Below, in pieces: positions 1-52,816 of a stretch of DNA of 64,000 bases. A model generated the notes under the pieces. That model worked only from the letters and a program-made list of their open reading frames with translations, made no database searches and was not told the DNA's origin. Position numbers and translations under genes: made by a program. This DNA is from Candidatus Hadarchaeales archaeon (GTDB lineage Archaea; Hadarchaeota; Hadarchaeia; Hadarchaeales; Hadarchaeaceae), in NCBI GenBank assembly GCA_038851075.1, contig JAWCLG010000002.1:38818-102817 (forward strand). The letters run 5' to 3'. Positions within the stretch are counted from its first letter, which is position 1; every line of letters begins with the position of its first letter.

Positions 1-413
1 ATCTCGCGGGCTTTTTCCGCGGCAAGCTTGTATCCTGATGTTACCACGGTAGGATGAATGTCCTGATCCAGCAGCTCCTCTGATTTTTTGAGCAGCTCTC
101 CTGCCAGCACCACGGCCGTAGTTGTCCCGTCCCCGACCTCGTTCTCCTGTGACTTTGAAACCTCAACCATCATCTTGGCGGCTGGATGCTCAACATCCAT
201 TGATTTCAGTATGGTCACTCCGTCATTAGTAATCGTGACATCACCGAGATTGTCTACAAGCATCTTATCCATTCCACGCGGCCCCAGGGTCGTTCTGACT
301 GCCTCCGCAATGACACGGGCGGCCATTATGTTCATGCGCTGGGCATCGCGCCCTAGGTACCTCTGCACCTTCTCAGGCAATATCAACACTGGCTGTCCAC
401 CCAACTGAGTCAA
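1..413 (-). CDS. ths: Thermosome (group II chaperonin) subunit, N-terminal part; the gene continues past the window edge
   Basis: The minus-strand translation reads [54 protein letters not shown]...[15 protein letters not shown], a typical thermosome N-terminus. A TTG start at 411-413 is likely. The annotated plus ORF 88-408 is antisense to this gene. Confidence 0.85.
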
Positions 414-498
414 GTTAATCCCCCACAGCTCTTACCAAGTATCACGGCTATCTCTTATATACGCATTTATTTATGAATTTTTTTGAGGTATAAAAATT

Positions 499-2091
499 TT
501 ACGCCTCTTTTTTAATTTCCCTTACCTGCTGGATGAACTTCCTGTACTCCTCCCCGTCCTTCAATCTCTCAATGTCCCTTCTATAGAGATCTGACTTGAG
601 GCTTTTGCCAGTCTTCTTTTCCCACTCATCAAACGATATCCCCTGGCTCTTCTGATCCCTGTCCCTGTACCAGTCGGGGATGACGTTGAAGGCGCAGAAG
701 GGCACCACCCTCTTATCAGTCATCACATAGTGTATACAGCAGCGCTTCACTCTCTCTATGTCATAGTTGTAAAGATCCATGAAGTGCATCATCCCTATGA
801 AGAGCGTTTTCATGTGGAACTTTCCGAGGGCGTCATAGTTGTGCCTGATTATAACGTCCAGGATAAGTCTGCCAACGTCAAGATCTTTTGGCTTGTTTTT
901 CTTATCTATGAACTTCCCGATGCTGGAGAGTATCTTCATGCCAACCAGCGCCCTGCCCTTCCCCCTTCTCAATTCATCCGCTTTTTCATCAAGATACTCT
1001 AGGAAGCCCTCCACATCGATAAACCTGGTGATCGGAATCACCCTTTCACCGTCCTTGAAAAGATAAGTGGCGGCGCCGCAGGCGAAATGGCTGCTCATAT
1101 CATACATGGTCTTTCCGGTGAAAGCCTCAAGGAAACCGCTTATCACCATTGCTGCAGGAACCGGGAAGAAGTCCTCAACCGATATCTCCCCACCTGTCTG
1201 TTCCTCAAGCTTACCAAGCACATCCGGAATCGTTATCCTGTACTTTTCTCTCTCCTCACGGGGCATCCTTCCGACGAGTGAGACGGGCTGAAAGTTGACC
1301 CCTCTGACCACATCAATATTTTTCAGACCAAACCTGACTATGTCTCCGATCTCATCGTCGTTAACGGACCTTATCACGGTCGGAACTAACACCACTCCCA
1401 TTCCAGCACTTTTGCAGTGCTCTAGAAGATACGGAACCTCCCAGTGGTTTTTTGGATTGCTCTTCTCCGTCAGCCCGTCAAAACTCAGGTAAAGCGTGTT
1501 CACTCCTGCCTCCCTCACTCTCCTCAGGAGCTCTGGGTCATGCGAAAGCCTTATCCCGTTCGTGTTGAGCTGAATATGATCGATTTTGTGCTTTTTTATT
1601 AATTTTATGATCTCAACTATATCCTCCCTCAAACACGGCTCACCGCCGGTTATCTGCACGGCGTTGCAAGGGATGGGCCTCTCATCCCTGAGTGTCTCCA
1701 CCATTTCCTCTATCTGGTCTATGGTGGGCTCGTAGATGTAACCAGCGCGACCTGAGTAGAAAAAACAGTACCAGCAGGCAAGGTCACAGCGGTTGGTCAC
1801 CACTATATTTGCTAGGGCTGTGTGGCTTTTGTGCATCGTGCAAAGGCCGCAATCCTTTGGGCATACCGGGTCGCTCTTTGTAACCTGCGGATTTTCCACC
1901 CCCTTTCCATCCCTGGCGTACCTCTTCGCCCTCTCGTACCATTTCATCGAGCCGAAGTACAGCTCCTCGAATTCACCGTGATCCGAACATGTCTTCTTTA
2001 TCCAGACCCTGCCATCCCTCCCGAATACCGTTGCAGGGACTATCTTCAAGCACTCTGGGCATACAGACTCCGTTTTTGCGAGTTCTTCCAT
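499..2091 (-). CDS. Radical SAM protein with an N-terminal rubredoxin-like Cys motif and extra Cys clusters; candidate tetraether lipid synthase (Tes/GDGT-MAS-like)
   Basis: 530 aa. CPEC...C.DHG at the N-terminus, then CPKDCGLC, then the radical SAM motif CDLACWYC, plus C-terminal Cys pairs (CCIHY, CAFN). The architecture resembles that reported for archaeal GDGT/MAS synthase. The gene is divergent from a CarS-like lipid gene. Confidence 0.75.
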   Translation of the reverse strand: MEELAKTESVCPECLKIVPATVFGRDGRVWIKKTCSDHGEFEELYFGSMKWYERAKRYARDGKGVENPQVTKSDPVCPKDCGLCTMHKSHTALANIVVTNRCDLACWYCFFYSGRAGYIYEPTIDQIEEMVETLRDERPIPCNAVQITGGEPCLREDIVEIIKLIKKHKIDHIQLNTNGIRLSHDPELLRRVREAGVNTLYLSFDGLTEKSNPKNHWEVPYLLEHCKSAGMGVVLVPTVIRSVNDDEIGDIVRFGLKNIDVVRGVNFQPVSLVGRMPREEREKYRITIPDVLGKLEEQTGGEISVEDFFPVPAAMVISGFLEAFTGKTMYDMSSHFACGAATYLFKDGERVIPITRFIDVEGFLEYLDEKADELRRGKGRALVGMKILSSIGKFIDKKNKPKDLDVGRLILDVIIRHNYDALGKFHMKTLFIGMMHFMDLYNYDIERVKRCCIHYVMTDKRVVPFCAFNVIPDWYRDRDQKSQGISFDEWEKKTGKSLKSDLYRRDIERLKDGEEYRKFIQQVREIKKEA

Positions 2092-2199
2092 GCTTCCACT
2101 GATTTTATCACTGGGGCGCTGATTTTAATCCTATCGTAGGCCCGATAACCGGCTGGCGGGTATTTTTAGATGTATGCTCCATCATTTTTGAGGTAGCGC

Positions 2200-2706
2200 A
2201 TGTGCGATGAGCTGGGAGGACTCATCTGCCGGGCAATATGGTTCATACTGCCTGCCTACGTCGCAAATGCTTCACCGGTCATTCTCGGAGGTGGGAGAGC
2301 AGTTGACGGCGGAAAAAAGATGAGGGACGGGCGTCCGATATTCGGCCCCGGCAAGACCATCAGAGGCATTGTCGGAGGCATGGCGGCCGGAACGGTAACT
2401 GGAATTATACAGGCGCTGCTCACGTCTTCTTCGCAATACATCCTGGTGGCGATTCTGCTCTCGGCGGGCGCGCTTATCGGTGATCTTTTAGGAAGCTTCA
2501 TAAAGAGGAGGCTGAACATACCTCGGGGAGGAGCCGCGCCGCTTCTTGATCAGCTTGGGTTCGTTATATTTGCCATTCTCATCGCAAGTCCATTTATGTT
2601 CCCTGGATGGGAAGCGGTGGTGATCATCATGCTCATCACTCCGCCGCTCCATCTCGCCACAAACTTCATCGGGTACAAAATGGGGGTAAAGAGCAGACCA
2701 TACTAG
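2200..2706 (+). CDS. carS: CDP-archaeol synthase (CarS, DUF46 family) membrane protein
   Basis: 168 aa polytopic membrane protein. The motif ILPAYVANASPVILGGG...DGGKKMRDGRPIFGPGKTIRG...GDLLGSFIKRR matches the CarS family pattern recalled from A. fulgidus CarS. Confidence 0.6.
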   Translation: MCDELGGLICRAIWFILPAYVANASPVILGGGRAVDGGKKMRDGRPIFGPGKTIRGIVGGMAAGTVTGIIQALLTSSSQYILVAILLSAGALIGDLLGSFIKRRLNIPRGGAAPLLDQLGFVIFAILIASPFMFPGWEAVVIIMLITPPLHLATNFIGYKMGVKSRPY

Positions 2707-3681
2707 GTGTGGTGTTTGAGGAGATATGATCTATTTGGCATCGGGACCGCGCTCGTGGACTCCGTTGCAAAGGTCGGGGATGACTTCATAAAAAAACTGG
2801 GATTAAAAAAAGAGGCCACGAACTATGTGACCCGCGATAGGCTGAACGAAATTCTAGGGGATCTCGGCAGCTCACTATTTTCCTGGCCCGGCGACAACGC
2901 CAGAAATGTCTGCGAGGGAATCGCGTTTATGGGCGGGAAAGCTGCATATGCTGGACGCATTGGCGGGGATCAGGAGGGCGTGTTTTTTGAAAAGGTGCTC
3001 AAACGCCTGGGAATAGAGTCGTTTCTAGAAGTCGGTCCTGGAAAGACTGGAAGAATAATAACTCTCGTTACGCCGGATATGTGCAGGACTTTCGTGGCTG
3101 ACCTCGGCAATGGAAACGGCTACTCCTCGGTTCCAGAATACGGGATAAAAAGCTCAAAATATCTGTTTCTCACATCAATAACAATGCTGAACGGTAAGAT
3201 CTCAGAAGTCGCGGAAAAAGCCTTGGATATTGCCAAAAAATCTGGAGTTTCCGTTTCGATCTCGCTGGAGAGCGCACCTATGATACTGGAGAACAGAGAA
3301 CGTCTTGTCTCTGAGGTCGCTAAGTCTGATGTTCTATTCGGGAACGAGATGGAGATATCGGCGCTAACCGGGATGGGCGCTGAGAATGGCGCAAAAAAAC
3401 TTGCCAGAAGGATACCCATCATATGTCTGAAAATGGGTGAAAGAGGATCTAAAATATTCTCAGGAGGACGCATAATTTCCGTACCACCGCACCCGGCATC
3501 TGTCAGAGACCCTACTGGTGCCGGAGATTATTACGCCGCGGGCTTCATATTCGGAATGATTAGGGGGAAAACAGTTGAGGAATGCGGAGAGATGGGGGCA
3601 AAGCTGGCATCTATGGCTATAGAAAACCTGTGCGCCACTCTGACTGAAAGAGAGGACCACGATATTTATCCAATAAATTGA
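2707..3681 (+). CDS. PfkB-family carbohydrate/nucleoside kinase (ribokinase-like)
   Basis: N-terminal GIGTALVD and C-terminal DPTGAGDYYAAGF signature motifs. 324 aa. Confidence 0.85.
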   Translation: MWCLRRYDLFGIGTALVDSVAKVGDDFIKKLGLKKEATNYVTRDRLNEILGDLGSSLFSWPGDNARNVCEGIAFMGGKAAYAGRIGGDQEGVFFEKVLKRLGIESFLEVGPGKTGRIITLVTPDMCRTFVADLGNGNGYSSVPEYGIKSSKYLFLTSITMLNGKISEVAEKALDIAKKSGVSVSISLESAPMILENRERLVSEVAKSDVLFGNEMEISALTGMGAENGAKKLARRIPIICLKMGERGSKIFSGGRIISVPPHPASVRDPTGAGDYYAAGFIFGMIRGKTVEECGEMGAKLASMAIENLCATLTEREDHDIYPIN

Positions 3682-7207: not shown

Positions 7208-7618
7208 ATGATAAAATCAGTGAGTGATGACATGGTAACACCCAAAAAAAGGGGCACAAGATTCGAATACAGGGTCGCCTACCTATTTGAAAAATACGGT
7301 TATTCTTGGGACAGGTCAAGAAGCTCCATGGGAATAGATCTCAAGATCACAAGAAACGGCAAGCTCCGTTATCTAATCAGCTGCAAAAAGACTTCAAAAA
7401 ACGGCCCGATATACATCCCGCTCGAAGAAGTTTCAAGACTTGAAAAATATTCCAGAGAAACACGGGCTGATGGGATGATATGCTTCGGCTTTAACAGAAC
7501 AGCCATCTTTTTTCTGAAACTTAAAGACGTCGCGCTGCTCGAGAAAACGCGCCAGTACTACAAAATAAATCGCGGCGATGGACATATTCTCGAAAACATG
7601 CTAAAGAAGATCAGATAA
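7208..7618 (+). CDS. Hjc-like Holliday junction resolvase-fold protein (PD-(D/E)xK); the motif E appears replaced
   Basis: MIKSVSDDMVTPKKRGTRFEYRVAYLFEKYGYSWDRSRSSMGIDLKITRNGKLRYLISCKK aligns with Pfu Hjc in the E...D...ExK region. The expected E-V-K appears as S-C-K. The annotated ORF starts upstream at 7061; its first 49 aa look non-coding. Confidence 0.55.
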   Translation: MIKSVSDDMVTPKKRGTRFEYRVAYLFEKYGYSWDRSRSSMGIDLKITRNGKLRYLISCKKTSKNGPIYIPLEEVSRLEKYSRETRADGMICFGFNRTAIFFLKLKDVALLEKTRQYYKINRGDGHILENMLKKIR

Positions 7619-7650: not shown

Positions 7651-9291
7651 TCAGGTCGATTGTCTTTGGGGAATCCTATTTCTTGGCAGATTGAGGCCCA
7701 GAAAATTCATCACCGGTCTAACGCTTTTGGTTCCATACCTCCACCTCAGGTATGCCCAGTAGAAGAAGAATCCTGCGGCTTTTATTATCCGTTCGTTTTC
7801 TCTCTTCCATATTTTTATATTCCTATCCCACGCGGTTGCTATGATCTCCCACTGAAGCTCAGTCGTGTTTTCAAACCCGACGCATTTTTCCTTTTCCCAG
7901 TAAGTGCCCTTTATCGGGATGAAGATGACCGGAACGTAGAACAGCTTCTTGTCCTTTATCCTATCAAAAAGCTCGAGAGTTGCAATCGTATCCTCCTCCG
8001 TCTCATCCGGAGACCCAACCAAAAATGTGCAGAGCGGGTACCAGCAGTTATCGTTCAGTATCCCCAGCCCGGTGTCTACTATTTCATGCCATCTGTCAAC
8101 CGTGAACGGAAGGGCTTTCCCACGCATACCTTTCTCCATGAGTCTGACGCTGCCGGTTTCTATTCCTATCTCCGCGGTGGTGTATGTCTTTCCGTTAAGG
8201 CGGCGTTTTGATTTTTCCAGCAATATCGGGCTGAGCTCCTCGATCATCTTGGGGTCTGCTACTACCGGCGCGATTGCCGCATGCGACAGATGAATTTCCT
8301 CAACGCCTGGGTATCCGGCTATCCTCGAAAAAAGTTCAATGACCTTTTCCCTGTTAGGAACGAAATTTGGGCCGACCTCGTAGAGAAAGATATCGTCCGA
8401 AATAACGAATATTGATTTTGATCCTCCCTTTACGTTTACCTCAACCTCCTTCATTATGAAATCGATTGGGAAAGAGTAACGCTTCTTCGTTGTAGGGTAG
8501 CAGAACTGGCATCCTCTCCCGCACCCCCTCGTTATCTCAATACAGCCATAACTCGCAGGCCTGATTATCGGAGGAATGTTGTCACGCTCTGGATCGACTT
8601 TTTCCATAGTTATGTCTCTCGGAACATCTTTACCTTCGAGTATGTCACGCACTAAGCTGCCCAAACCGCGTTCCACGTCCCCGTGGACAAGCACGTCTAT
8701 GCCAAACGCATCCTGCATTTTGACCTCCTTTATCTGCCATGCGCCCGGGCCTCCCACGACAAGCTTTGTTTTTGTCCTGTCCCTTTCACGTATCACGGGG
8801 TGCTCCATCAGCTGTTTAAAGTAAAAATAGTTAACAGAATCACCGCCGAACCCAAGAAGCTCATTGTAGGTCCTGCTCACATATGCGAACCCCATGGGGT
8901 CATGGCTCGAAACGCCTATCATTTTCGTATTCTTCCCAACAAATTTGCTTAGGGTATTCGGATGTGCGACAGCAACACTTTCCTCGCCAAATTCTCTCGC
9001 CAGAATCGCCTCAATCCTGCGCAAACCATAAGAAACGAATTTTGGTCTTCCCTGATCATCAAGCTTTGGTTCGAAGTATCTGACAAGAAAACGGCGAACG
9101 AGCCTGTGCGGGAAAGTAGACATAAATGCCACGAACGGGTCTCCGCCAAAATCGCTCATTGTAGGCAGATCAGATGTTAAAACTATCGGATAACCGTTGG
9201 TCCCCTCCTCGGATCCGGAACTGCCCTCCCCGGCTCGCGTTCCCCCAGAAAACACTCTCGAAAGCATTTTTACCTCCAGACCTTTATCCAT
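7651..9291 (-). CDS. B12-binding-domain radical SAM protein (class B)
   Basis: 546 aa. A B12-binding-like N-terminal region precedes the radical SAM motif CGRGCQFC. Candidate archaeal lipid or cofactor tailoring enzyme. Confidence 0.8.
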   Translation of the reverse strand: MDKGLEVKMLSRVFSGGTRAGEGSSGSEEGTNGYPIVLTSDLPTMSDFGGDPFVAFMSTFPHRLVRRFLVRYFEPKLDDQGRPKFVSYGLRRIEAILAREFGEESVAVAHPNTLSKFVGKNTKMIGVSSHDPMGFAYVSRTYNELLGFGGDSVNYFYFKQLMEHPVIRERDRTKTKLVVGGPGAWQIKEVKMQDAFGIDVLVHGDVERGLGSLVRDILEGKDVPRDITMEKVDPERDNIPPIIRPASYGCIEITRGCGRGCQFCYPTTKKRYSFPIDFIMKEVEVNVKGGSKSIFVISDDIFLYEVGPNFVPNREKVIELFSRIAGYPGVEEIHLSHAAIAPVVADPKMIEELSPILLEKSKRRLNGKTYTTAEIGIETGSVRLMEKGMRGKALPFTVDRWHEIVDTGLGILNDNCWYPLCTFLVGSPDETEEDTIATLELFDRIKDKKLFYVPVIFIPIKGTYWEKEKCVGFENTTELQWEIIATAWDRNIKIWKRENERIIKAAGFFFYWAYLRWRYGTKSVRPVMNFLGLNLPRNRIPQRQST

Positions 9292-15962: not shown

Positions 15963-17150
15963 TCAGGTCTTTCTTCCCTCAAGCAGATTCTCAAGCTCTT
16001 TCTCCAGCCACGCCACTGGCGCTTCCTGTATACCGATCTTTTTCTTCCCTTTAGAGCGCGCCTCCTTCACCTCAACAAGTCCGAGTCCCTCCATTCTTTT
16101 TAAATACTCCCAGAACTGGCTCTTCTCTCGTGGCTGCTCTCCGTATTCTTCGCATGCCGCACGATATGTTTTGTCTAGGTCTTCCCTTAACGTGTACGCC
16201 TTACCGGAAGATCTGAGTCTCCTGCACAGAGAGAGCAGAAGTATCTTTTCGTGGGGTAACAGCTCGCGCAAAACCTCGCGCTTGATAACCGGATAAACCT
16301 CGGCCTTTGCCTCCCTGACGTGCTCCGGATTGACCGAACTCTCTAACTTTCCATCTGCGATGAGCCCTGCCCTCCACAACAGCTCGAGCGCAAATCTAGC
16401 ATCTCCAGTTGAAGATGCGATGTCGGCTATAAGATCCACAGACTCCTCCTCTACGGCCCCGGGTTTGAATGCCTCGTGGATTCTCTGCTGAAGTATGTCT
16501 TTAAGCTGCTCGGCAGTGTACCTGTTAAGCTCAAGCACGTTATGCATAAACGTGCTCTGTGTCGGGAGGTCAAGCGATTTGAGAAACTCCCTGTCCTTAG
16601 CAACAGCTATGATACTTATTCTGTTAGGCTGGCCTTCATCCTCATACATCCTAGTCAGCGAGTACATCAGGTCGGGACCCTCCATGCGGACGTAATAGTC
16701 TATTTCATCAAGGCAAAGGGTGAGGTATGCATCGTGCGTCCTCATGTAGGTTGAGATCAGATCTATCAGTTTTTCCGGTGACAGCCCATGATGAGGCCAT
16801 TTTGGATTGTAATGATGATGTATTTTGGATATGATCGAAAAGTAGCTCTTGTCCTTTCTGCAGTTTATGTGGAGATAGCTCAGATTCATTCCTCTCCCCT
16901 TCGCCGTAGCCTCCAGATCGGCGCCAAACCTTCCCGCTATGGCAGTCTTTCCTACCCCAACGCTTCCTGTGATTAAAACCCGCTGGCTCATCCTGTTCTC
17001 CAGGAGAGGTCTAAAAACTCTGATTAACCATCTAAACTCCTCATCTCTGTGCACCAAAACCTGAGGGACGTAGTCTGGAGAGAGTTTGCTCGCGTCCCTG
17101 AAAACTGACGGCCTTTCCAGTTCCTCCTCGAAGAGATTCCTCATTTGCAC
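15963..17150 (-). CDS. orc1: Orc1/Cdc6 replication initiator (AAA+ plus winged helix), paralog A
   Basis: Walker A GSVGVGKTA, a DEID Walker B-like box, and a C-terminal winged helix. 395 aa. Confidence 0.9.
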   Translation of the reverse strand: MQMRNLFEEELERPSVFRDASKLSPDYVPQVLVHRDEEFRWLIRVFRPLLENRMSQRVLITGSVGVGKTAIAGRFGADLEATAKGRGMNLSYLHINCRKDKSYFSIISKIHHHYNPKWPHHGLSPEKLIDLISTYMRTHDAYLTLCLDEIDYYVRMEGPDLMYSLTRMYEDEGQPNRISIIAVAKDREFLKSLDLPTQSTFMHNVLELNRYTAEQLKDILQQRIHEAFKPGAVEEESVDLIADIASSTGDARFALELLWRAGLIADGKLESSVNPEHVREAKAEVYPVIKREVLRELLPHEKILLLSLCRRLRSSGKAYTLREDLDKTYRAACEEYGEQPREKSQFWEYLKRMEGLGLVEVKEARSKGKKKIGIQEAPVAWLEKELENLLEGRKT

Positions 17151-17191: not shown

Positions 17192-18322
17192 TCATGCTAT
17201 CCTTACCATGTGTGTCTGGAAATACCCACTAATCACAGGTATGTATCCCCTCAGCTCTGAATCTAGCCCCGGATCTCCCGTATCCACCTTAAGTACTGGT
17301 GTGAGGCTCAGTTTTTGAGGAGTGGCCAGAACTATGATGTTCTTCTTTCCAACCTTTTTGATAACCCTAGGGCTGATCTGCTGGTTCCCTCTTCCGAAGA
17401 TGAATCCCTGTCTGCCAAGAGGACTCACAACAATTGCGGCAGGATTCTTCTCAATCTTCTCCATTATCTGATTTTCATTAACATCCTTTCCAACAAGTTT
17501 ATAGTCAAGTATCAAATCCACACCAAGCAGGGTAGAGTCATATATCCCAAGCTCTTCGGCGACTGCCCTTGTGGTTGTTCCCGGGCCAAGTATGTAAACC
17601 CTCCCTTTTTCCATTAACTCGACCATCCATCTTGCTATGGCCTTCTGGTCAGCTGTTTCGAACCCGGAGCTACTCTCCTTTCCAGTCTGCATCATGACCG
17701 GCTCATAGGGCACAACGGCGTATCCCTTCAGACTAACCGCCAGCTCGTCCCTCCTGTATGTATCCTCGTCTATATCCATCACCTCGGCCTCTCTGACCGG
17801 TAACCCTCGTGAAAGAAAAAGCGAGGCCACATCTCCCGCGGCGCTCGGTGTGTTCGCAAAAACCGCTGAATATATCTTCACTCCTGATGGCACTCCTAAA
17901 ATTGGGACCTTGCTTCCGGCGACCTCATAAACGTCTCTCGCTGTTCCATCCCCACCTACAAACATCACAAGATCCACTCCCATCTCGATCATCTTTTTTA
18001 CCGCAAGCTTTGTGTCCTCCGCTGTGGTCTGCCCCGGCTTTATGCTGCCTATGACTGTCGGCTCACACCCGCTCTCTCTCACCACGGTCTCACCCATTTC
18101 TCCGGGATATGTTATTACCTGAACCTGATCTCGCATCCTCGTCAGCCTCTTCATGGCTTCTAGTCCTCTTTTGTGAGAAACCGGTTCCGCACCGAGCTCA
18201 ACTGCCCGTCTCAGAGCCTCTGGTCCATCAGTTCCCTTCAATCCCACGCGTCCGCCCATTCCGGCGATCGGGTTCACGACAAACCCTATTTTCCTCATCT
18301 GTCTATCAACTTCCGTTTTCAT
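17192..18322 (-). CDS. ATP-NAD/diacylglycerol-kinase-like family protein (GGDGT motif)
   Basis: MFVGGDGTARDV motif. 376 aa. Confidence 0.65.
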   Translation of the reverse strand: MKTEVDRQMRKIGFVVNPIAGMGGRVGLKGTDGPEALRRAVELGAEPVSHKRGLEAMKRLTRMRDQVQVITYPGEMGETVVRESGCEPTVIGSIKPGQTTAEDTKLAVKKMIEMGVDLVMFVGGDGTARDVYEVAGSKVPILGVPSGVKIYSAVFANTPSAAGDVASLFLSRGLPVREAEVMDIDEDTYRRDELAVSLKGYAVVPYEPVMMQTGKESSSGFETADQKAIARWMVELMEKGRVYILGPGTTTRAVAEELGIYDSTLLGVDLILDYKLVGKDVNENQIMEKIEKNPAAIVVSPLGRQGFIFGRGNQQISPRVIKKVGKKNIIVLATPQKLSLTPVLKVDTGDPGLDSELRGYIPVISGYFQTHMVRIA

Positions 18323-19820
18323 CTTGCTGATGCCCTGAGAGATACATTCTCCAGCTAAGTATTGGTTCCTTCGCTGCCTTCACCTCATCCAGCCTGCCGA
18401 TTGCCGTGCACAGAGGAGCTGAACGCAGAAGCTCAGGATTTTCTCTCGCATCTTTAGCGATCTCCCGCATCACGCCGATGAACCTGTCAAGCTCCTCCTT
18501 TGTTTCCGTTTCAGTTGGCTCCACCATAAGAGCCTCGGAAACTATTGGTGGAAAGTAATAAGTCGGCGCGTGCATGCCATAGTCAAGAATTCTCTTTGCG
18601 ACGTCTCTTGCTGTTACTCCAGTCTCCCTCTTGAGCGGCTCCGCTGTAAATACCACCTCATGCTTGCATACTCCATCAAACGCCGGCTTGAATCCGTCTA
18701 TCTCTGATATTTTTTTTCTGATGTAGTTTGCATTCGCAACCGCTGTTTCAGTGACCTCCTGAAGTCCCTCTCCTCCCATCATCAGAAGGTAAGTATAAGC
18801 CCTGACAAGCACGCCGAAGTTTCCATAAAATGACCTGATCTTGCCTATCGAGTCCGGCCTGTCATAGTTCAAATAATATCTATTTTTTTCTTGATCGTAC
18901 TCTATGAGAGGGACCGGCAAGAACCTCTCCAGCTTTTCGTTCACGCCCACCGGACCGGAACCGGGCCCTCCTCCGCCGTGTGGTGTGGAGAACGTCTTGT
19001 GAAGATTTAGATGGACCACATCAAAACCCATATCTCCTGGTCTGGTCCTGCCGAGAATGCCGTTCATATTTGCTCCGTCGTAGTATAGAAGACCTCCAGC
19101 CTCATGCACTATTTTTGCTATCTCATGGATCCCGTCCTCAAAGAGACCCAGCGTGTTTGGGTTTGTGAGCATGATCGCCGCGGTCTGATCGGAAACTGCA
19201 GCTCTCAGAGCATCGATATTCACCCTTCCGCGTGAGTCAGACGGAATGACTCTCACCCTGAACCCAGCCATCGCGGCGCTGGCAAAGTTTGTGCCGTGGG
19301 CCGAGTCCGGGATTATAACCTCAGTTCTGTGATCCTCCCTGTAATTGTGATATGCTCTTATTAAAAGAAGACCAAGAAGCTCCCCATGGGCCCCTGCTGC
19401 CGGATGGAGACAGACCCTCTTTACTCCGGCAATCTCCGCAAGCATTCTCTCGAGTCTGTACATGAGCTCTAAGCATCCCTGAACTGTGCTTTCATCCTGA
19501 TACGGATGAACGTTTGTGCTATCCATCCATGCCATCTCATCGCATATTTTCGGATTGTACTTCATGGTGCAGGACCCTATCGGATAAAAAACCAGATCTA
19601 TGCAATAGTTCATCTGCGAAAGTCTTGTGTAGTGCCGCACAACTTCTGGCTCTGAAAGCTCTGGAAGATTGAGCGAGGTCCTCCTCAGTTTTTCCGGTAT
19701 TTCAAAATCAGATGGCCTTTTCTGCGGCAGATGGACCCCTGTTTTTTCTGCCTTGCCAAGTTCAAAGATGATCGGCTCAAGTCCTGAACCGGTTGCCCAC
19801 CTTGCCTGTCTGAAGTTCAT
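18306..19820 (-). CDS. gcvPB: Glycine dehydrogenase (decarboxylating) subunit 2
   Basis: PLP enzyme. The motif HLNLHKTFSTPHGGGGPG is diagnostic of GcvPB. Confidence 0.9.
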   Translation of the reverse strand: MNFRQARWATGSGLEPIIFELGKAEKTGVHLPQKRPSDFEIPEKLRRTSLNLPELSEPEVVRHYTRLSQMNYCIDLVFYPIGSCTMKYNPKICDEMAWMDSTNVHPYQDESTVQGCLELMYRLERMLAEIAGVKRVCLHPAAGAHGELLGLLLIRAYHNYREDHRTEVIIPDSAHGTNFASAAMAGFRVRVIPSDSRGRVNIDALRAAVSDQTAAIMLTNPNTLGLFEDGIHEIAKIVHEAGGLLYYDGANMNGILGRTRPGDMGFDVVHLNLHKTFSTPHGGGGPGSGPVGVNEKLERFLPVPLIEYDQEKNRYYLNYDRPDSIGKIRSFYGNFGVLVRAYTYLLMMGGEGLQEVTETAVANANYIRKKISEIDGFKPAFDGVCKHEVVFTAEPLKRETGVTARDVAKRILDYGMHAPTYYFPPIVSEALMVEPTETETKEELDRFIGVMREIAKDARENPELLRSAPLCTAIGRLDEVKAAKEPILSWRMYLSGHQQDENGS

Positions 19821-21214
19821 AATCTCTCCTCCAGAATGGCCGAAACCGAATCGATAAACTTGTTCATATCATCCTCTGTATGAAGTTCTGTTGCGCAGAC
19901 AAGTGATGTCTCTCCAAGCTCAGGGAACTCTCTCTTAAGCGGTTTACCTCCATGAACTCCCCTCATCAGAAGCTCCGAATTCATCTTTTCAATGCCGATC
20001 TCCTTTGAAACAATTTTCATTGTGAACTCATTGAAGTGCGGCGATTCGAATACGGGAGCAACAACGCCGCTTATTCTTCCAAGTCTCTTCATCAAGAATT
20101 TTGCATTGGAGGCGCAGATTTCTGCCACATCCCTGAGACCTCTAGGACCCATTGATGCGAGGTATATCGCGGCGGCTATTGCACAAAGCGTTTCATTCGA
20201 GCATATGTTGGATGTCGCTCTCTCTCGCCTTATGTGCTGTTCCCTTGTCTGAAGCGCCATTACAAATCCTCTGGTCTTTCCATCAACCGTGGTCGTCATT
20301 CCAGAAATTCTTCCGGGCAATGACCTTATCATCTTCTCCTCTCCCCTGCACGCGAAAAGGCCAAGCGCGGGGCCTCCAAAGCTCACCGGATTGCCAAGCG
20401 GCTGTCCCTCTCCAACAACTATGTCCGCGCCGTACTCGCCCGGTGGTTTCAGGAGTCCAAGCGAGATTGGATTGACCCCAACCACGAACATCGCCCCAGC
20501 CTCATGCGCCATTCGCTCTATTTCGTCCACCTGAACTTCAAGGAATCCGAGATAAGCGGGGTTCTCTATGTATACTCCCGCGGTGTTTTTGTCCAGTTTT
20601 CTCTTAAGGTCTTCCAAATCCACATTCCCGGTTTTTTTATTGTGACCAACTCTGACTATCTCAAGGCCTGCCCCTGAGGAGTAATTTTTGAGCACAGAAA
20701 GACGATCACGTGACATTATATCGGGTACCAGGAATCTTTCCCTTTCGGTAACGCGGGCGCACATCAGGGCTGCTTCTCCAAGGGCCGTTGCCCAATCATA
20801 CATAGACGCATTTGCCACATCCAATCCCACAAGCTCACATATCATGCTCTGGTACTCGAAGAGAGCCTGCAGGACACCTTGGCTGACCTCCGCCTGGTAA
20901 GGTGTGTAGGAAGTTAGGAACTCTGCCCTTGAAACAAGAGCTTTAACGTGCGCGGGAACGTAGTGGGGCCAGACACCGCCGCCGAGAAAAACTGGAAATT
21001 TGGTGAAGGGGACGTTTTTTGAGAGAATCTCCGTAACATGCCTCCTAACCTCCTGCTCCGACATTCTGGGCGGAAGACTGAGCGGACGCTTTAGTCTGAC
21101 CTCTTCTGGGATATCTGAAAAAAGATCTTCTACGCTGTTCACTCCTATATCGACAAGCATCTCTTCTCTAATCCTCTTGAAGCTGGGGATATAGTGGTGG
21201 CTCATCTTCTGCAC
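19817..21214 (-). CDS. gcvPA: Glycine dehydrogenase (decarboxylating) subunit 1
   Basis: 465 aa N-terminal P-protein subunit. Stop and start overlap with gcvPB, indicating an operon. Confidence 0.9.
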   Translation of the reverse strand: MQKMSHHYIPSFKRIREEMLVDIGVNSVEDLFSDIPEEVRLKRPLSLPPRMSEQEVRRHVTEILSKNVPFTKFPVFLGGGVWPHYVPAHVKALVSRAEFLTSYTPYQAEVSQGVLQALFEYQSMICELVGLDVANASMYDWATALGEAALMCARVTERERFLVPDIMSRDRLSVLKNYSSGAGLEIVRVGHNKKTGNVDLEDLKRKLDKNTAGVYIENPAYLGFLEVQVDEIERMAHEAGAMFVVGVNPISLGLLKPPGEYGADIVVGEGQPLGNPVSFGGPALGLFACRGEEKMIRSLPGRISGMTTTVDGKTRGFVMALQTREQHIRRERATSNICSNETLCAIAAAIYLASMGPRGLRDVAEICASNAKFLMKRLGRISGVVAPVFESPHFNEFTMKIVSKEIGIEKMNSELLMRGVHGGKPLKREFPELGETSLVCATELHTEDDMNKFIDSVSAILEERL

Positions 21215-21658
21215 TTAGCCAGATGTTTTCAAATACTCTTTGTATTGGCTGGCGTTCATCAGATTTTTAAGCTCAACGTCAAGATTCTTTGCGCTTATCG
21301 CGCATATCCATCCTTCATTATAAGGATCTGTGTTTATCAATTCGGGGCGTTCTTTGAGAACTCTGTTAACTTCAAGTATCGTTCCACTTACCGGGGCATA
21401 TACCGCCGAAACTGCTTTAATTGACTCTAGAACCGCAATCTCCATATCCCTCCCCTTTTTTTCCTCAAGCTGTCTGACTGCCTGGCCCTCTGCCGGAAGC
21501 TCAACGTAAACTATGTCCCCCAGCTTTGACTGTGCGTAATCTGTGACCCCCACTCTCACCATGGTGCCCTCTATCTTCGCCCACTCATGATCTCTCGTGT
21601 AATAGAGACCCTCAGGAATTTTTGTTTCAACTCTGCTCATATCTTGCACCTTTTCCAC
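21215..21658 (-). CDS. gcvH: Glycine cleavage system H protein (lipoyl carrier)
   Basis: Lipoyl-lysine motif LESIKAVSAVYAPVSG. The probable start is MSRVETKIP at 21640. Confidence 0.9.
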   Translation of the reverse strand: MEKVQDMSRVETKIPEGLYYTRDHEWAKIEGTMVRVGVTDYAQSKLGDIVYVELPAEGQAVRQLEEKKGRDMEIAVLESIKAVSAVYAPVSGTILEVNRVLKERPELINTDPYNEGWICAISAKNLDVELKNLMNASQYKEYLKTSG

Positions 21659-21661
21659 TAT

Positions 21662-22672
21662 TCAACCTGCAGTAAAAACCCTATCCCCCATCTCTTTCTT
21701 TATTCTTTCTATCTCAACCAAGGATGGTGGTCGGGGGTAGTTGTAAATCGGCCCTCGAGGAGATTCATTGAAAAACGGCCTGTTACAATGCGGACAACCG
21801 GATGTCATGAAAGGCTTCCCCGTGCTCACTATTCCGTCTAACCTTTTCTCCTTGATCCCAAAGCTAATTATCCTTCCGCCTCTGAATTCAAAGTCCTCCA
21901 CCCTCGCAAGTTCACATGAAACAAGATACCGGATCACCTGAACCCTCCGATACGTTCTTATCTCCGGCTGGGGTCTGTTTTCCAATGGTGTTCCCCTCAC
22001 CGGAAAAAACGCGAAGAGCCCCGTATCTACTCCAAGGTCATGCATCTGCTGAATTGTTCTCGCAATTTCCACCTCGCTCTCTCCTAATCCGACGATAAGG
22101 TGTGTGGTCGCCTTGCCGAAAACCCTTCGTGCTTCGACTAGGGCCTCAATATGCTTCGTCCAAGTATAGTACGGCCCCTTCATCCTTGCGAAGATGGCAG
22201 GAGCTGAACAGTCAAGTGGGATACACATCCTCTCAGCTCCAGCCTCTCTGAGGGCTTCTATCCCTTCAAGGCTCAAAGGCGGACAGCATACTGATATCGG
22301 GGCGCCGCAAACTTCGCTCAATTCCCTGACCGTCTGGAGGAGATCAGGGAAAGAATTTTTGTAGTTAACCTGCTGAACACATATTCTCCCGAAGTCCGAT
22401 CTCGCCAGCCTTTCCACCACTTCCTCGGCCCTCCACTCCGGCCAGATCACTCTCGAGACGGTAGAGGGGTCCCCCACTGCCTCCTTCGCCTTAGGACAGA
22501 ACCTGCAGTTCGACAAACATTTTCCATTTCTATCGATCATGATATGGGCGGTGGAGGGAGCCACCTCCTGCTTTCCGCCCCAGAGACCTAGGACTATTCC
22601 CGTCCCGAATGCCACTCTCAACCTTTCAACCATCTGACCCACTCTCTTGCCCCGAGAGGCACCGAACAGCAC
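21662..22672 (-). CDS. Radical SAM protein, archaeal two-component lipoyl synthase type (LipS1/LipS2 family)
   Basis: CLSNCRFC is a CxxxCxxC motif. The gene lies between a second radical SAM gene and gcvH/lplA. Archaeal lipoyl synthase is known to be a two-protein radical SAM enzyme. Confidence 0.7.
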   Translation of the reverse strand: MLFGASRGKRVGQMVERLRVAFGTGIVLGLWGGKQEVAPSTAHIMIDRNGKCLSNCRFCPKAKEAVGDPSTVSRVIWPEWRAEEVVERLARSDFGRICVQQVNYKNSFPDLLQTVRELSEVCGAPISVCCPPLSLEGIEALREAGAERMCIPLDCSAPAIFARMKGPYYTWTKHIEALVEARRVFGKATTHLIVGLGESEVEIARTIQQMHDLGVDTGLFAFFPVRGTPLENRPQPEIRTYRRVQVIRYLVSCELARVEDFEFRGGRIISFGIKEKRLDGIVSTGKPFMTSGCPHCNRPFFNESPRGPIYNYPRPPSLVEIERIKKEMGDRVFTAG

Positions 22673-23529
22673 ACGTTCATCACGCCGATCCTTATCCCCA
22701 TCCCAGATGCCTGCTCAACAGTCTGTCTGCTTGGAATCTCCATCCTGTCCACCCCTGCCATTAGGGCTTCCCGCTCGTATTCCTCTCTATAAATTCCTTT
22801 GGGCCTCATGCAACCTAGAGAGATCTCTCCAGATATTAGCCCCCTTGCCCTGGCAATCACCTCTCCGACTGATTTTGGATCTGGGGGACATACATCGTGC
22901 AGAGCTGTATCCTGAGCGGGCACGAAAATCAGAAAAACGATGACCTCAGGATCTGCCTCCGCTGCTATATCTACCGCTCTTTCCCCAAGCAGCTCCCCTC
23001 CATGCGCGCCTATACATACGTGGGGGACCACATGAGGGATGTGTCTGCGAAGATCGTTCATGACCCTCATGTAGTCTTTTGGAGTCCTGTCAAGCCCTGT
23101 CATGAGTTTTATTGTCCTGCAATCTCCAAAGAGTTCAAAGTCCACCAGATCTATACCCGCCCTGCCAAGCTCCCTCGCCAGCCAGCTTGGAACAAGTCCG
23201 GTGTGCGCCGCCAAGAAAAGGTTTGTTTCCTCCTTTATCCTCTGGATGATATCAAGGTATGAATTCAGCGGCACATATCCATCTTCATTGCACCCTCCGC
23301 TTAACAGAACTCCAAATGCCCCACTGGCCTCCAGATCCAAGCACCTGTCGTATAGATTCTCAGGGGTCAAGCACGGAATCATTCCCTTCAGGTACCTGCC
23401 CCTGCATCGCGCGCACATCAGCTCACAGCTCACGCCTGTTATGGATATCGCTGGAAACCTGTCTCCTGGAAAACTGGCAATGAAATGTCGCTGCGCAGCC
23501 TGCGTTGTTCTCACCTCATCGCGTTCCAC
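22618..23529 (-). CDS. Radical SAM protein, partner of the adjacent LipS-type protein (LipS1/LipS2 family)
   Basis: CELMCARC is a CxxxCxxC motif. Adjacent to lplA. Confidence 0.65.
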   Translation of the reverse strand: MERDEVRTTQAAQRHFIASFPGDRFPAISITGVSCELMCARCRGRYLKGMIPCLTPENLYDRCLDLEASGAFGVLLSGGCNEDGYVPLNSYLDIIQRIKEETNLFLAAHTGLVPSWLARELGRAGIDLVDFELFGDCRTIKLMTGLDRTPKDYMRVMNDLRRHIPHVVPHVCIGAHGGELLGERAVDIAAEADPEVIVFLIFVPAQDTALHDVCPPDPKSVGEVIARARGLISGEISLGCMRPKGIYREEYEREALMAGVDRMEIPSRQTVEQASGMGIRIGVMNVCCSVPLGAREWVRWLKG

Positions 23530-24266
23530 TCAACGGATGCGTATTTCCTCCTCAGCTCCAGCGCAAGCCTTAACTCATCCTCCATAATATCCCCGCGGAA
23601 AATCTCTGCCTCCATGACCTCCATGAACCCCTGAATCATGTGCTCCCTCACCTCCTTAATGTCAGGCCTTCTTTTGATCTCCCTTTCCACAGTGGTTACT
23701 CTATCGTAAACGCTCTCTATCCCCTTATCCGATATTTTTGCTCCACCGACCCTTAGTACCTCAAACATCCTCCTCACATCTGGAGAAATGAGTATAGTTC
23801 CGTGCTGCAGGACGCTCCCCCACCTCCGCGTCTGCGCGCTCCCAGAGATCTTCCTTCCTTTCACCTGGATGTCGTTTACTGGTCTGAAATCCGCCTCTAC
23901 TCCCATCCTCCTGAGGCCGGACACCAGCCCCCCGCAGATGATCTCATAGGACTCTATTATGTCCCTCGGCACGTTCTCCTCACTGCACACAAAGCTGTAC
24001 GTGAGTTCACCTTCGGAATCGTGAAAGACTGCTCCACCGCCTGTGATTCTCCTAACTACCTGCATGTGGTATCTGCCAGCTGCTTCAAGGTCGACCTCTC
24101 TGGCCAAACTCTGGAAAAAACCTATGGAAACAGCGGAGGGGGTCCATGTCCAGAATCTCAGGGTGCTCGGTGACCTTCCATTGGAGTTGAGCCTGAGCAG
24201 TGCTTCATCTATGGCCATGCTCGTGAAGGCATCGTCCCTGCGCATCGGCAAAACCCTAATCCTCAT
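23511..24266 (-). CDS. lplA: Lipoate-protein ligase A, catalytic N-terminal domain (split LplA)
   Basis: BPL/LplA fold motifs RRITGGGAVFHD and KISGSAQ. Only 251 aa; the C-terminal domain is encoded separately upstream. Confidence 0.85.
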   Translation of the reverse strand: MRIRVLPMRRDDAFTSMAIDEALLRLNSNGRSPSTLRFWTWTPSAVSIGFFQSLAREVDLEAAGRYHMQVVRRITGGGAVFHDSEGELTYSFVCSEENVPRDIIESYEIICGGLVSGLRRMGVEADFRPVNDIQVKGRKISGSAQTRRWGSVLQHGTILISPDVRRMFEVLRVGGAKISDKGIESVYDRVTTVEREIKRRPDIKEVREHMIQGFMEVMEAEIFRGDIMEDELRLALELRRKYASVEWNAMR

Positions 24267-27991: not shown

Positions 27992-28182
27992 CGTCCTCCC
28001 TCTTTTTAATTTGGATAGGGGCTATAAAAAGAGAAAAAAACGAGAATTTTATTGATCGAGCATACCACCGAATGCGACCAAACTTGTTGTTATTTCTCAC
28101 CAATCACCACGACAGAGAATGCTCCCCAGTTAAAACGATCGGATAAAATCGCAAAATTTATTTGCTTTGAAGAACAAACATA

Positions 28183-29313: not shown

Positions 29314-29316
29314 GCA

Positions 29317-30285: not shown

Positions 30286-30334
30286 CCTACCACCATGAAA
30301 AAGTCGTTACTATAACTAAAAGTCTACCGCATCG

Positions 30335-30736: not shown

Positions 30737-30762
30737 AACTATTTATTAATAATAGATAATTA

Positions 30763-30782
30763 TTCCAGTGGAAACTAAGGGG
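30763..30782 (+). promoter_or_regulatory. ORB with G-string, plus orientation, inverted relative to the two upstream ORBs
   Basis: TTCCAGTGGAAACTAAGGGG. A very AT-rich stretch (about 30560-30760 and 30800-30900) lies between the inverted ORBs, consistent with a duplex unwinding element. Confidence 0.6.
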
Positions 30783-31812: not shown

Positions 31813-31834
31813 GCACCCATGAGTAAAATATTTC

Positions 31835-51422: not shown

Positions 51423-51628
51423 TCCTCTACAACAATTTCCTCGTTCAGTTTGTTAACAAGTTCACTTATCTCTCGCTCTTCCATTTTCCTCGTTTTTTTG
51501 CTCCCCTTCCTCTCTTTCTCGCGTCGCCTGAAACGGCGCAAGGGAACACCAATAGTATATTTATCTTGCCGGAAAAAAGCTCTTTTTCTTCTTATAAATT
51601 ACCGGTGCGGAAGGATATGTGGGGAGAT

Positions 51629-52816
51629 ATGCCTAAAAAATACGATATAGTTGTGGCTGGCGGTGGACCATCTGGACTTTCGGCGGCCATAAAGGCTGCT
51701 TCAATGGGTTGCAACGTTCTTGTTCTCGAAATGCAGTCCCAGATAGGTGGGCTGGGGCAGCCTGCATGGGTTGATGATAGGATTGGCAGTACAGTTCCAA
51801 GTTCGGTTCTCGCGAGCGTGAGAAAGGTCGGCTTCAGAACTCCAAGCGTCAGTCTCGATGTTCGCGGAAATTTTGGTGTCGTGCTGGACAGAAGAGATTT
51901 TGACAGGGGACTGGCTATTAAGGCGGCTGATGCCGGCGTGGAAATATGGCTCAGCGCTCCAGTTAGAGATTTTGTAATGGAAGGTGGCAGGGTCGCGGGA
52001 GTTAAAATAGGGGTTGGAGGGTGGTCAGAAGAGGTACGTGCCGATGTTGTAATAGATGCCACTGGAGCGAGAGGAGAATGGTCCGGTCTTTTTTTGAAAA
52101 AAATCTCGGGAAAGGAGTGGGCCAGAGAGGAGCTGGCTTTCAGCAGCGAATATCTGCTGGCAAATTTTGAACAGAAAAAGGTGAGCCTGCTTTTCAACTC
52201 TTATTTGACTCCTAGCGGCCATGCATGGGTTTACCCCTGCGGGTCCGGGGTGTCTTCTGCGGGTGTTCAGGGAATCAGAATCAACCCGGAACTTGCTCTG
52301 GACGAGCTGATAGGGAGAAACGCGATTGATGGCATAAAAAAATCTGTGACGGTGGCCTCTTTCAGATCGCAGTGCCCCATTGTAGGTCCATTGGATTCCG
52401 CCTGCAGTGACGGCGTCGTGGCTGTCGGTTCAGCCGCAGGTCATGTTTATCAGTTTTCCATGAGGGGCCTGCGTCACGCGATAGGAGCGGGAGAAATTGC
52501 GGGCGAGGTTGCCGCGGAGTCAATAAATTCTGGAGATTTTTCAAAAGATAGGCTCTCCGAGTTTGATACTTTGCTTAAGGACAGGTTTTCCCATGATTTC
52601 TTCCTGGGAAGCGTTTTGAGGGAGGCATTGGGGTCTTTTTCAGATAGGAAGATGAGTTTAATCCTCTCTGAGGTCGAGGGAGATAGAAGGCTGGGTCGTG
52701 CCGTTGTGGATCTATTCCTGTGCAGAAACCTGAAAAAATCTGTTGAGATCATAATGGAAAATAAAGCCCTTTCAGAGATTTTTGGTAGAAGATTACTGGA
52801 GGGGCAGCACAGTTGA
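51629..52816 (+). CDS. Geranylgeranyl reductase family flavoprotein (isoprenoid saturation)
   Basis: YDIVVAGGGPSGLSAA FAD fold. About 395 aa from the MPKKYD start. A TTATAAAT element lies about 30 bp upstream. Confidence 0.85.
   Translation: MPKKYDIVVAGGGPSGLSAAIKAASMGCNVLVLEMQSQIGGLGQPAWVDDRIGSTVPSSVLASVRKVGFRTPSVSLDVRGNFGVVLDRRDFDRGLAIKAADAGVEIWLSAPVRDFVMEGGRVAGVKIGVGGWSEEVRADVVIDATGARGEWSGLFLKKISGKEWAREELAFSSEYLLANFEQKKVSLLFNSYLTPSGHAWVYPCGSGVSSAGVQGIRINPELALDELIGRNAIDGIKKSVTVASFRSQCPIVGPLDSACSDGVVAVGSAAGHVYQFSMRGLRHAIGAGEIAGEVAAESINSGDFSKDRLSEFDTLLKDRFSHDFFLGSVLREALGSFSDRKMSLILSEVEGDRRLGRAVVDLFLCRNLKKSVEIIMENKALSEIFGRRLLEGQHS

Follow-up and report, generated by a model that had tools for sequence, protein, structure and literature searches.

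The locus described here lies in the genome of a Candidatus Hadarchaeales archaeon (a MAG) and consists of two genes placed head to head. Very probably they are orthologs of two known archaeal membrane-lipid enzymes, namely tetraether lipid synthase (Tes) and CDP-archaeol synthase (CarS). The window is the whole 64-kb stretch of DNA (64,000 nucleotides) that was analyzed. The following features are discussed:

499..2091, minus strand: tes, predicted tetraether lipid synthase (GDGT/macrocyclic archaeol synthase), 530 aa, ATG start; NF045702
694..1080, minus strand: putative C-terminal auxiliary-cluster region of Tes with C338, M435, C451 and C466; M435 falls on Met439
1330..1806, minus strand: predicted radical SAM core, residues 96-254; C102-x3-C106-x2-C109 (C102-DLA-C106-WY-C109); PF04055, E=1.6e-30
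1831..1863, minus strand: putative N-terminal auxiliary [4Fe-4S] motif, C77-x3-C81-x2-C84 plus H87; invariant
1954..2082, minus strand: predicted rubredoxin-like mononuclear Fe domain, residues 4-46; C11, C14, C35, H38; PF23545, E=7.8e-20
2092..2199, no strand: divergent intergenic region of 108 bp; AT-rich, TATA-like elements lie before each gene
2200..2706, plus strand: carS, predicted CDP-archaeol synthase (CDP-2,3-bis-(O-geranylgeranyl)-sn-glycerol synthase), 168 aa, ATG start
2707..3681, plus strand: PfkB-family kinase, GTG start abutting the carS stop; PF00294, E=1e-34

The tetraether synthase and its metal sites

The product of ORF 499..2091 finds its top NCBIfam model in the Tes equivalog NF045702, with 720.2 bits against a cut-off of 450 and a match spanning profile positions 1-481 of 486; MoaA and SPASM models score far lower. 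Pfam detects the domains Zn_ribbon_HMPTM and Radical_SAM, and hydropathy analysis reveals no hydrophobic segments. The best match among solved structures is the GDGT/MAS enzyme of M. jannaschii (7TOL, E=1e-136), which aligns collinearly with residues 6-492 and is 46.6% identical over 479 aligned columns. This enzyme (MJ0619, PDB 7TOL/7TOM) is equivalent to the Tes proteins Maeo_0574, MA_1486 and Saci_0703. NCBI's automatic annotation already gives the name "tetraether lipid synthase Tes" to homologs at 69-72% identity, of which two come from Hadarchaeota records; the record of the host genome itself says "radical SAM protein" only. The original prediction of a Tes-like protein within this 530-aa radical SAM sequence is thus borne out by the family score as well as by the best structure, and the assignment as Tes, with a predicted Csp3-Csp3 coupling of phytanyl termini as in GDGT/MAS, is supported.

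All cysteine motifs proposed earlier (the N-terminal CxxC...CxxH, CxxxCxxC, CDLACWYC and the C-terminal cysteines) are present in the translated sequence, and the suspected multi-cluster architecture matches the published M. jannaschii enzyme residue for residue. Of the 12 ligand positions that are published or follow from the alignment, each carries the same residue in both proteins and is invariant in homologs. Conservation was judged from an alignment of 12 sequences, the homologs being 60-82% identical to the window protein. The listed motif cysteines are invariant there, C452 excepted, and correspond one to one with the published ligands, therefore they are not a product of chance. The N-terminal spacing C11-x2-C14-x20-C35-x2-H38 is that of the published C9X2C12X20C33X2H36, with all four residues invariant. 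C77, C81, C84 and H87 align with C73, C77, C80 and His83 of M. jannaschii; for this auxiliary cluster the published account specifies only "a conserved histidine", and His83 is taken from the alignment presented here. The radical SAM cysteines C102, C106 and C109, again invariant in homologs, align with C98, C102 and C105. At the C-terminus M435 aligns with Met439, the labile ligand of [4Fe-4S]C, and the invariant C338, C451 and C466 align with C338, C455 and C470, which suggests that they provide the three cysteine ligands of this cluster.

Both proteins belong to the same length class and share, besides collinearity, the rubredoxin spacing, the CX3CX2C motif, the N-terminal C-x3-C-x2-C with its histidine and the methionine ligand. 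They differ at Cys438 of M. jannaschii, which corresponds to Met434 in the window Tes. Since methionine is also found here in all 12 aligned homologs, this position is not an expected ligand. The window protein has, in addition, a C-terminal tail of approximately 38 residues beyond the aligned region, and its host is, in contrast with M. jannaschii, a non-methanogenic and uncultured Hadarchaeales archaeon.

CDP-archaeol synthase and the divergent spacer

ORF 2200..2706 passes the CarS equivalog NF003114 with 198.7 bits (cut-off 148) and the Pfam CarS-like family PF01864 with 172.7 bits (E=9e-51, cut-off 22), and shows a secondary CTP_transf_1 match (E=3.4e-9). It aligns over its full length (residues 9-167, E=2.5e-32) with ApCarS of Aeropyrum pernix (5GUF), with which it shares the block GDxxGSFxKRRLxxxRGxxAPLLDQL (GDLLGSFIKRRLNIPRGGAAPLLDQLGF compared with the matching 28-letter stretch of ApCarS). 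This block is presumably the catalytic cytidylyltransferase signature of the family. The window protein is 43% identical to CarS of Archaeoglobus sp. UBA234; another CarS is AF1740 of A. fulgidus. Compared with known CarS proteins it is slightly shorter (168 versus 180-182 aa). Approximately five hydrophobic segments are indicated by Kyte-Doolittle peaks at about 12-30, 56-74, 81-99, 115-133 and 139-157, hydropathy being an approximate test; the ApCarS architecture comprises five transmembrane helices and a polar cavity on the cytoplasmic side, a review being the source for the number of helices. The membrane protein was hence rightly recognized as CarS, for which an activity with CTP and DGGGP yielding CDP-archaeol is predicted with good support. 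For neither gene does another family come first: Tes and CarS are the top assignments, not a different radical SAM subfamily or a membrane protein unlike CarS.

Tes and carS stand back to back across 108 bp (2092..2199), in the divergent arrangement that had been proposed. The shared promoter proposed earlier would consist of two back-to-back promoters within this spacer, judging from the divergent orientation and the TATA-like elements listed above. A GAGGT Shine-Dalgarno-like element lies 5 nt upstream of the start codon of carS. The spacer also contains the 9-nt sequence CTGATTTTA as a direct repeat (2099-2107 and 2119-2127), a short repeat in two copies being weak evidence. As the window spacer gives no meaningful alignment with that of the related locus L012, a shared regulatory element is unsupported.

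The PfkB gene probably follows carS as second gene on a common transcript, and the order carS-pfkB is kept in five related loci (L001, L005, L010, L013 and L015). The closest solved structures of its product are adenosine and sugar kinases; a role as lipid head-group (inositol) kinase is unsupported by these relatives, and the kinase itself is not a lipid enzyme. The corresponding downstream position in Archaeoglobus is occupied, in the same orientation, by a phosphoribosyltransferase instead of this adenosine-kinase-like protein. At the window edge the upstream gene is, by homology to L001, a thermosome gene. An exact look-up for the surrounding contig gave a single match, a Logan fragment of 2.8 kb, and an identical copy of the gene is present in the sequencing run SRR27730043.

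Recurrence of the pair in two archaeal lineages

A census of the best 80 Tes loci was conducted, in which a CarS gene in divergent orientation and no more than 2 kb away from Tes counted as a pairing. It was found in 8 of 12 informative loci of Hadarchaeota and in 8 of 9 loci of the Archaeoglobales clade, and the remaining lineages among the 80 loci contributed a single qualifying case, from Aenigmatarchaeota with a gap of 1.9 kb. A check for false negatives with a CarS profile HMM returned the same 19 loci as tblastn. In the Tes tree the pairings of Hadarchaeota and of the Archaeoglobales clade sit in separate Tes clades. Four Hadarchaeota loci with full flanks lack the pairing.

The region between both genes is variable in Hadarchaeota. 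In the closest relative (L001) two NAD-salvage genes, coding for an isochorismatase and a QRPTase-like protein, are located between tes and carS, and in five other loci, L005 and L013 included, a TrmB-family regulator is found at this place. No copy of the TrmB-like, isochorismatase or QRPTase-like genes was detected anywhere in the window, and their relocation within it is rejected. Among Archaeoglobales the gaps, measured from one probable start codon to the other, comprise about 70-110 bp in most loci and reach about 360-440 bp in two of them (L046 and L078); the spacers of this clade contain a conserved palindromic TATA-like element (GATATATC). The phosphoribosyltransferases near CarS in Archaeoglobus and in the window share no similarity, hence only the tes-carS pair is common to both lineages, and a wider ancestral synteny block is rejected. 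A literature search found no paper describing this linkage. Both genes encode known enzymes that are correctly annotated, and knowledge of the enzymes themselves gains nothing; the head-to-head pairing that recurs in two archaeal lineages is the only new increment, and a mild one.

Interpretation within the lipid pathway

For ORF 499..2091 other identities have been considered. A class D radical SAM pterin methylase (HMPTM) of methanopterin biosynthesis would be in line with the name of the N-terminal Pfam domain and with the role first assigned to MJ0619, but the methylase activity was not reproducible by Lloyd et al., who found archaeal lipids bound in a narrow, hydrophobic tunnel and demonstrated that biphytanyl is formed in vitro; as the NCBIfam equivalog now also names the family Tes, we regard this role as highly improbable. 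Membership in TrsS, a related family of radical SAM (seleno)proteins whose model NF045646 is the runner-up in NCBIfam with 355.3 bits, is practically negligible, because this value is half of the Tes score, remains below the model's own cut-off of 490 and covers residues 6-324 only. The protein might also be a paralog within the Tes family that is no GDGT synthase and has another product spectrum (macrocyclic archaeol only, weak or no activity like MA_1114, or another lipid C-C coupling). Such a paralog has a precedent in MA_1114, one of two homologs in M. acetivorans, which gave only traces of macrocyclic archaeol (Zeng et al.); besides, Hadarchaeota are uncultured and our literature search found no paper on their lipids. 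Yet this variant is unlikely given that the window Tes scores 270 bits above the equivalog cut-off, retains all ligands including the methionine, is accompanied by no other Tes-like gene in the 64-kb window and falls among sequences of its own phylum in the Tes tree, where an ortholog would be expected. Sequence as such cannot separate GDGT output from macrocyclic output in Tes homologs.

Whether the adjacency means anything is a separate matter. It may be a neutral accident of gene order between two correctly identified genes, devoid of regulatory or functional meaning, and we consider this a substantial possibility, albeit short of the probable. Spacer length ranges between 108 bp and 1.9 kb, with unrelated inserts, the intergenic DNA is not conserved, the pairing is missing in four Hadarchaeota loci and in nearly all of Aenigmatarchaeota and Nitrososphaerota, and the flanking phosphoribosyltransferases of both lineages are unrelated. 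On the other hand, the divergent orientation is kept in 16 loci besides the window and in two distinct Tes clades, and in the Archaeoglobales clade the pairing is near-universal with mostly short gaps and the conserved palindrome. Moreover, there is precedent for lipid genes near Tes. In M. acetivorans MA_1486-MA_1485-MA_1484 encode Tes, a ferredoxin and geranylgeranyl reductase (GGR), and such a neighbourhood has been used as evidence of Tes function (Zeng et al.). Here, too, Tes is found beside another archaeal lipid-pathway enzyme, but the partner is CarS from the earlier head-group-activation step, is divergently oriented and has no adjacent ferredoxin or bona fide GGR. A stronger proposal regards the pair as a dedicated regulatory module by which the proportion of diethers to tetraethers in the membrane is set, with the TrmB regulator in the spacer of several Hadarchaeota and the palindromic element in Archaeoglobales as its candidate parts, or as a physical or substrate link in which Tes acts on CDP-activated or nascent CarS products. 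The latter is conceivable because the head-group pocket of Tes is non-specific; as a whole we hold this proposal to be rather doubtful.

Returning to the pair as orthologs of two known lipid enzymes, CarS would act as a five-helix membrane cytidylyltransferase that activates unsaturated DGGGP with CTP to CDP-archaeol, the gateway to attachment of polar head groups. Tes is presumably a soluble or peripheral enzyme of the radical SAM type that contains one rubredoxin-like iron and three [4Fe-4S] clusters; it would follow after head-group exchange and chain saturation and link two phytanyl chains through their terminal methyl carbons. The two steps are thus non-consecutive, with head-group transfer and reduction by GGR in between, and the pairing may serve to express them in concert, CarS as the first committed step towards phospholipids and Tes as the last one of core-lipid synthesis. 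Published work describes Tes as acting on saturated lipids with non-specific binding of the head group. A 5'-deoxyadenosyl radical takes hydrogen from the end of the first chain, whose carbon radical is then stored through a C-S bond to the C-terminal auxiliary cluster, and a second SAM gives rise to a radical on the second chain, whereupon the C-C bond is formed; products are GTGT and then GDGT, or macrocyclic archaeol if the coupling is intramolecular. By analogy the window Tes would use the same catalytic mechanism.

Tes has already been reported in 24 of 27 archaeal phyla. The present assignment attaches a predicted tetraether capacity (GDGT or macrocyclic archaeol) to a specific Hadarchaeales genome, which helps to trace GDGT biomarkers from hot springs and the subsurface back to their sources. 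Almost no regulators of archaeal membrane-spanning lipid content are known, and the lineage-restricted, orientation-conserved pair, with its TrmB regulator in some spacers, offers a cheap entry to this subject. If the module proposal were true, tetraether content in archaea would have its first described point of transcriptional control.

A geranylgeranyl reductase had also been proposed at position 51629. An FAD-protein ORF does exist there (51566..52816), but it stays below the cut-offs of the GGR family, with 125.9 bits versus 158.8 for TIGR02032 and, for the digeranylgeranylglycerophospholipid reductase equivalogs, 107.9 versus 780 (NF041160) and 83.8 versus 580 (NF041080). It is best described as a GGR-like FAD protein that is not a confirmed lipid reductase. 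Being below cut-off and 49 kb distant it adds nothing to a lipid cluster, and a cluster including GGR is rejected. Further radical SAM genes of the window encode the lipoyl synthases LipS1 and LipS2, a PA0069-like protein and a B12-like radical SAM protein.

Identity of the divergent lipid gene pair

The first genes of the window comprise a divergent pair, tes and carS, which are separated by only 108 bp.

3-428 (-): thermosome gene, partial at the window start
499..2091 (-): tes, encoding a radical SAM protein of 530 aa
2200..2706 (+): carS, encoding a membrane protein of 168 aa
2707-3681 (+): PfkB-family kinase, its GTG on the first base past the carS stop

The evidence supports both products being standard orthologs of known enzymes, tetraether synthase (Tes, GDGT/MAS) and CDP-archaeol synthase (CarS); as such they are already known and of low novelty. 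All motifs named for the 530-aa protein in the original prediction are found in the translation, namely C11-x2-C14-x20-C35-x2-H38, C77-x3-C81-x2-C84, C102-DLA-C106-WY-C109 and the C-terminal cysteines C338, C451/C452 and C466. In Pfam the N-terminus matches the “HMPTM zinc ribbon” (E=8e-20) and the core matches Radical_SAM (E=2e-30). The NCBIfam equivalog NF045702 (“tetraether lipid synthase Tes”) is matched over nearly the whole profile, at 720 bits (cut-off 450). TrsS is the nearest non-Tes family, yet it reaches 355 bits against its own cut-off of 490, and for MoaA and the SPASM maturases the NCBIfam scores stay under 90 bits. The top match among solved structures is 7TOL/7TOM, the GDGT/macrocyclic archaeol synthase of Methanocaldococcus jannaschii (E=1e-136); residues 6-492 align collinearly to its chain residues 24-513 (46.6% identity, 479 aligned columns). 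The family was once annotated as a methanopterin pterin methylase, a role that could not be reproduced and that conflicts with the structure. No segment reaches transmembrane strength in hydropathy, in keeping with literature descriptions of the enzyme as soluble or peripheral.

According to Lloyd et al. (PMC9433317) the M. jannaschii enzyme is defined by four metal sites: a rubredoxin-type Fe held by C9X2C12X20C33X2H36, an N-terminal [4Fe-4S] cluster with C73/C77/C80 and a conserved His as ligands, the radical SAM cluster on CX3CX2C, and a C-terminal [4Fe-4S] cluster with the labile Met439. With the 20-residue tag offset allowed for, these ligands map to identical residues of the window Tes, i.e. 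C11, C14, C35 and H38; C77, C81, C84 and H87; C102, C106 and C109; and M435. None of these positions varies in an alignment of 12 homologs that share 60-82% identity with the window Tes. The same is true of C338, C451 and C466, the putative Cys ligands of the C-terminal cluster. With the equivalog cut-off exceeded, the best structure being Tes and the published metal ligands matched, the predicted Tes identity is supported. The same sequence has been deposited for a Candidatus Hadarchaeales MAG under the bare name “radical SAM protein”; homologs with 69-72% identity, two of them Hadarchaeota records, already carry the name “tetraether lipid synthase Tes”, and the best-matching genome loci are all from Hadarchaeota.

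The proposal of CarS for the 168-aa protein is likewise supported. It matches Pfam CarS-like (E=9e-51) and exceeds the cut-off of the NCBIfam equivalog CDP-2,3-bis-(O-geranylgeranyl)-sn-glycerol synthase (198.7 against 148 bits). The full length of the protein aligns with 5GUF, the CarS structure from Aeropyrum pernix (E=2.5e-32), and the GDxxGSFxKRRL...APLLDQL block is part of this alignment. Its approximately five hydrophobic segments agree with the five-helix fold described for ApCarS.

A working scheme can be drawn from characterised orthologs. CarS would convert unsaturated DGGGP with CTP to CDP-archaeol, and head-group transfer and geranylgeranyl reduction would follow. Tes would act on diether phospholipids that are fully saturated, without specificity in head-group binding, and would spend two SAM per C-C bond, the first substrate radical presumably being held as C-S adduct on the C-terminal cluster. 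Its products would be GTGT and from it GDGT, or macrocyclic archaeol.

Distribution of the tes-carS arrangement and its spacers

We surveyed the 80 best Tes loci, one genome per species, for CarS with tblastn and, independently, by running a CarS profile HMM over every ORF; CarS was placed within 6 kb of Tes at 19 loci, identical in both searches. In the window, CarS lies divergently less than 2 kb upstream of Tes, and so it does in 8 of the 12 Hadarchaeota loci whose flanks were long enough and in 8/9 loci of the Archaeoglobales clade. Other lineages with enough flank were Aenigmatarchaeota, Iainarchaeota, Nitrososphaerota, Caldarchaeales and Bathyarchaeia; outside Hadarchaeota and Archaeoglobales this order was found solely in the aenigmatarchaeotal locus L064, at 1.9 kb. 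Locus L051 has a divergent CarS 4.9 kb from Tes, and in L069 CarS is co-oriented with Tes, 0.7 kb off. Hadarchaeota and Archaeoglobales form separate clades in the neighbour-joining Tes tree, so the divergent arrangement is either old and was repeatedly lost, or it was assembled twice. Apart from the pair itself the two neighbourhoods have nothing in common, and the phosphoribosyltransferases near CarS in both proved unrelated on comparison.

In the work of Zeng et al. (PMC8941075), 24 of 27 archaeal phyla had Tes homologs, and the Tes-ferredoxin-GGR neighbourhood of Methanosarcina acetivorans served as supporting evidence; CarS is not mentioned there. Full-text literature searches found tes-carS linkage (Tes with CarS adjacency) and Hadarchaeota lipids (Hadarchaeota or Hadesarchaea with tetraethers or GDGT) nowhere described. 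The modest addition made here is the divergent order kept in restricted lineages, with a TrmB-family regulator in some Hadarchaeota spacers. Together they suggest that diether activation and tetraether formation may be controlled in concert.

Genes between carS and tes in loci of the census
L002:5151-5942 (-): TrmB-family regulator, co-oriented with carS
L004:3920-4681 (-): TrmB-family regulator, co-oriented with carS
L005:5195-5926 (-): TrmB-family regulator, co-oriented with carS
L013:5188-5934 (-): TrmB-family regulator, co-oriented with carS
L015:5192-5923 (-): TrmB-family regulator, co-oriented with carS
L001:4226-5958 (+): isochorismatase-family and QRPTase-like phosphoribosyltransferase genes, co-oriented with tes

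The TrmB-family proteins of these five Hadarchaeota genomes (~245-263 aa) are candidate regulators of the lipid pair; Pfam scans of those from L005 and L002 gave TrmB (E=1e-25 in L005) and Regulator_TrmB. L010 has a gap of like size (810 bp) without an intact ORF, and the window and L012 have no intervening gene. The isochorismatase-family and QRPTase-like genes, NAD-salvage-like, occur in L001, the closest relative (Tes 82% identical), where a thermosome gene lies directly downstream of tes as in the window (95% identity between both over residues 7-148). TrmB-like, isochorismatase-family and QRPTase-like genes have no copy elsewhere in the window. The order carS-pfkB is kept in five Hadarchaeota loci; among solved structures, adenosine kinases and sugar kinases are nearest to the window kinase. 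In the Archaeoglobus locus L072 the gene after tes encodes a CTP_transf_like nucleotidyltransferase.

Archaeoglobales spacers mostly measure ~70-110 bp between likely start codons. Near the middle most of them have a conserved TATA-like palindrome, GATATATC, and a strong GGAGGT precedes tes. The palindrome, which may represent a bidirectional core promoter, reads (C)TTGATATATC in most of the spacers compared (L052, L058, L063, L065, L072 and L075; degenerate in L063). The window spacer (2092..2199) contains the following elements:

~29-37 nt upstream of the tes ATG: AT-rich ATTAAAATC (tes strand)
~31-39 nt upstream of the carS ATG: AT-rich TATTTTTAG
5 nt ahead of the carS ATG: GAGGT
2099-2107 and 2119-2127: 9-nt direct repeat CTGATTTTA, copies 20 bp apart

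A third repeat copy is located at 7212-7220 (-), giving 3 in the window against 0.78 expected. Aligning the window spacer with the L012 one gave no meaningful match. Back-to-back promoters are therefore plausible, whereas a shared regulatory element is no more than a candidate.

Other genes of the window

The remainder of the window is of housekeeping character; features noted in it are the following:

7651-9291 (-): radical SAM protein, 546 aa, weakly like B12-binding/rSAM and MiaB-like families
18306-24266 (-): lipoate and glycine-cleavage cluster
18306-21214 (-): glycine dehydrogenase P-protein, two subunits
21662-22672 (-): LipS2 lipoyl synthase, above equivalog cut-off
22618-23529 (-): LipS1 lipoyl synthase, above equivalog cut-off
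23511-24266 (-): LplA/B-type ligase
51566..52816 (+): FAD protein
54558-56760 (+): thiolase (NF004720, 468 bits against 420) and adjacent genes

A geranylgeranyl reductase had also been predicted at 51629, which is an internal Met of the FAD protein. This assignment was not upheld: the GGR family is the best model, but it scores 125.9 against a cut-off of 158.8, and lipid-reductase equivalogs give 84-108 bits with cut-offs of 580-780. The ORF may encode a putative divergent prenyl-reductase paralog and, lying 49 kb from tes-carS, belongs to no cluster. The 546-aa radical SAM protein is encoded ~5 kb from the lipid pair (best model TIGR04013, 70 bits against 251). It is possibly of interest because the archaeal lipid-modifying enzymes Grs and Gmm are B12-rSAMs.

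Ahead of the thiolase a 221-aa protein without family match is encoded, and after it a 115-aa protein that has a CxxC...CxxC motif and that we suspect to be DUF35-like. The mevalonate pathway's acetoacetyl-CoA thiolase module may be located here, with no HMG-CoA synthase adjacent.

Finally, the region ~28000-34000 may hold a replication origin. Cumulative GC skew has its minimum near 28-30 kb, GC content falls to 0.43 at 30-32 kb, and most genes lie on the minus strand at 14-28 kb and on the plus strand at 34-50 kb; the region is flanked by genes for two Orc1/Cdc6 proteins, for MCM and for the two PolD subunits (15963-17150 (-), 40212-49757 (+)).
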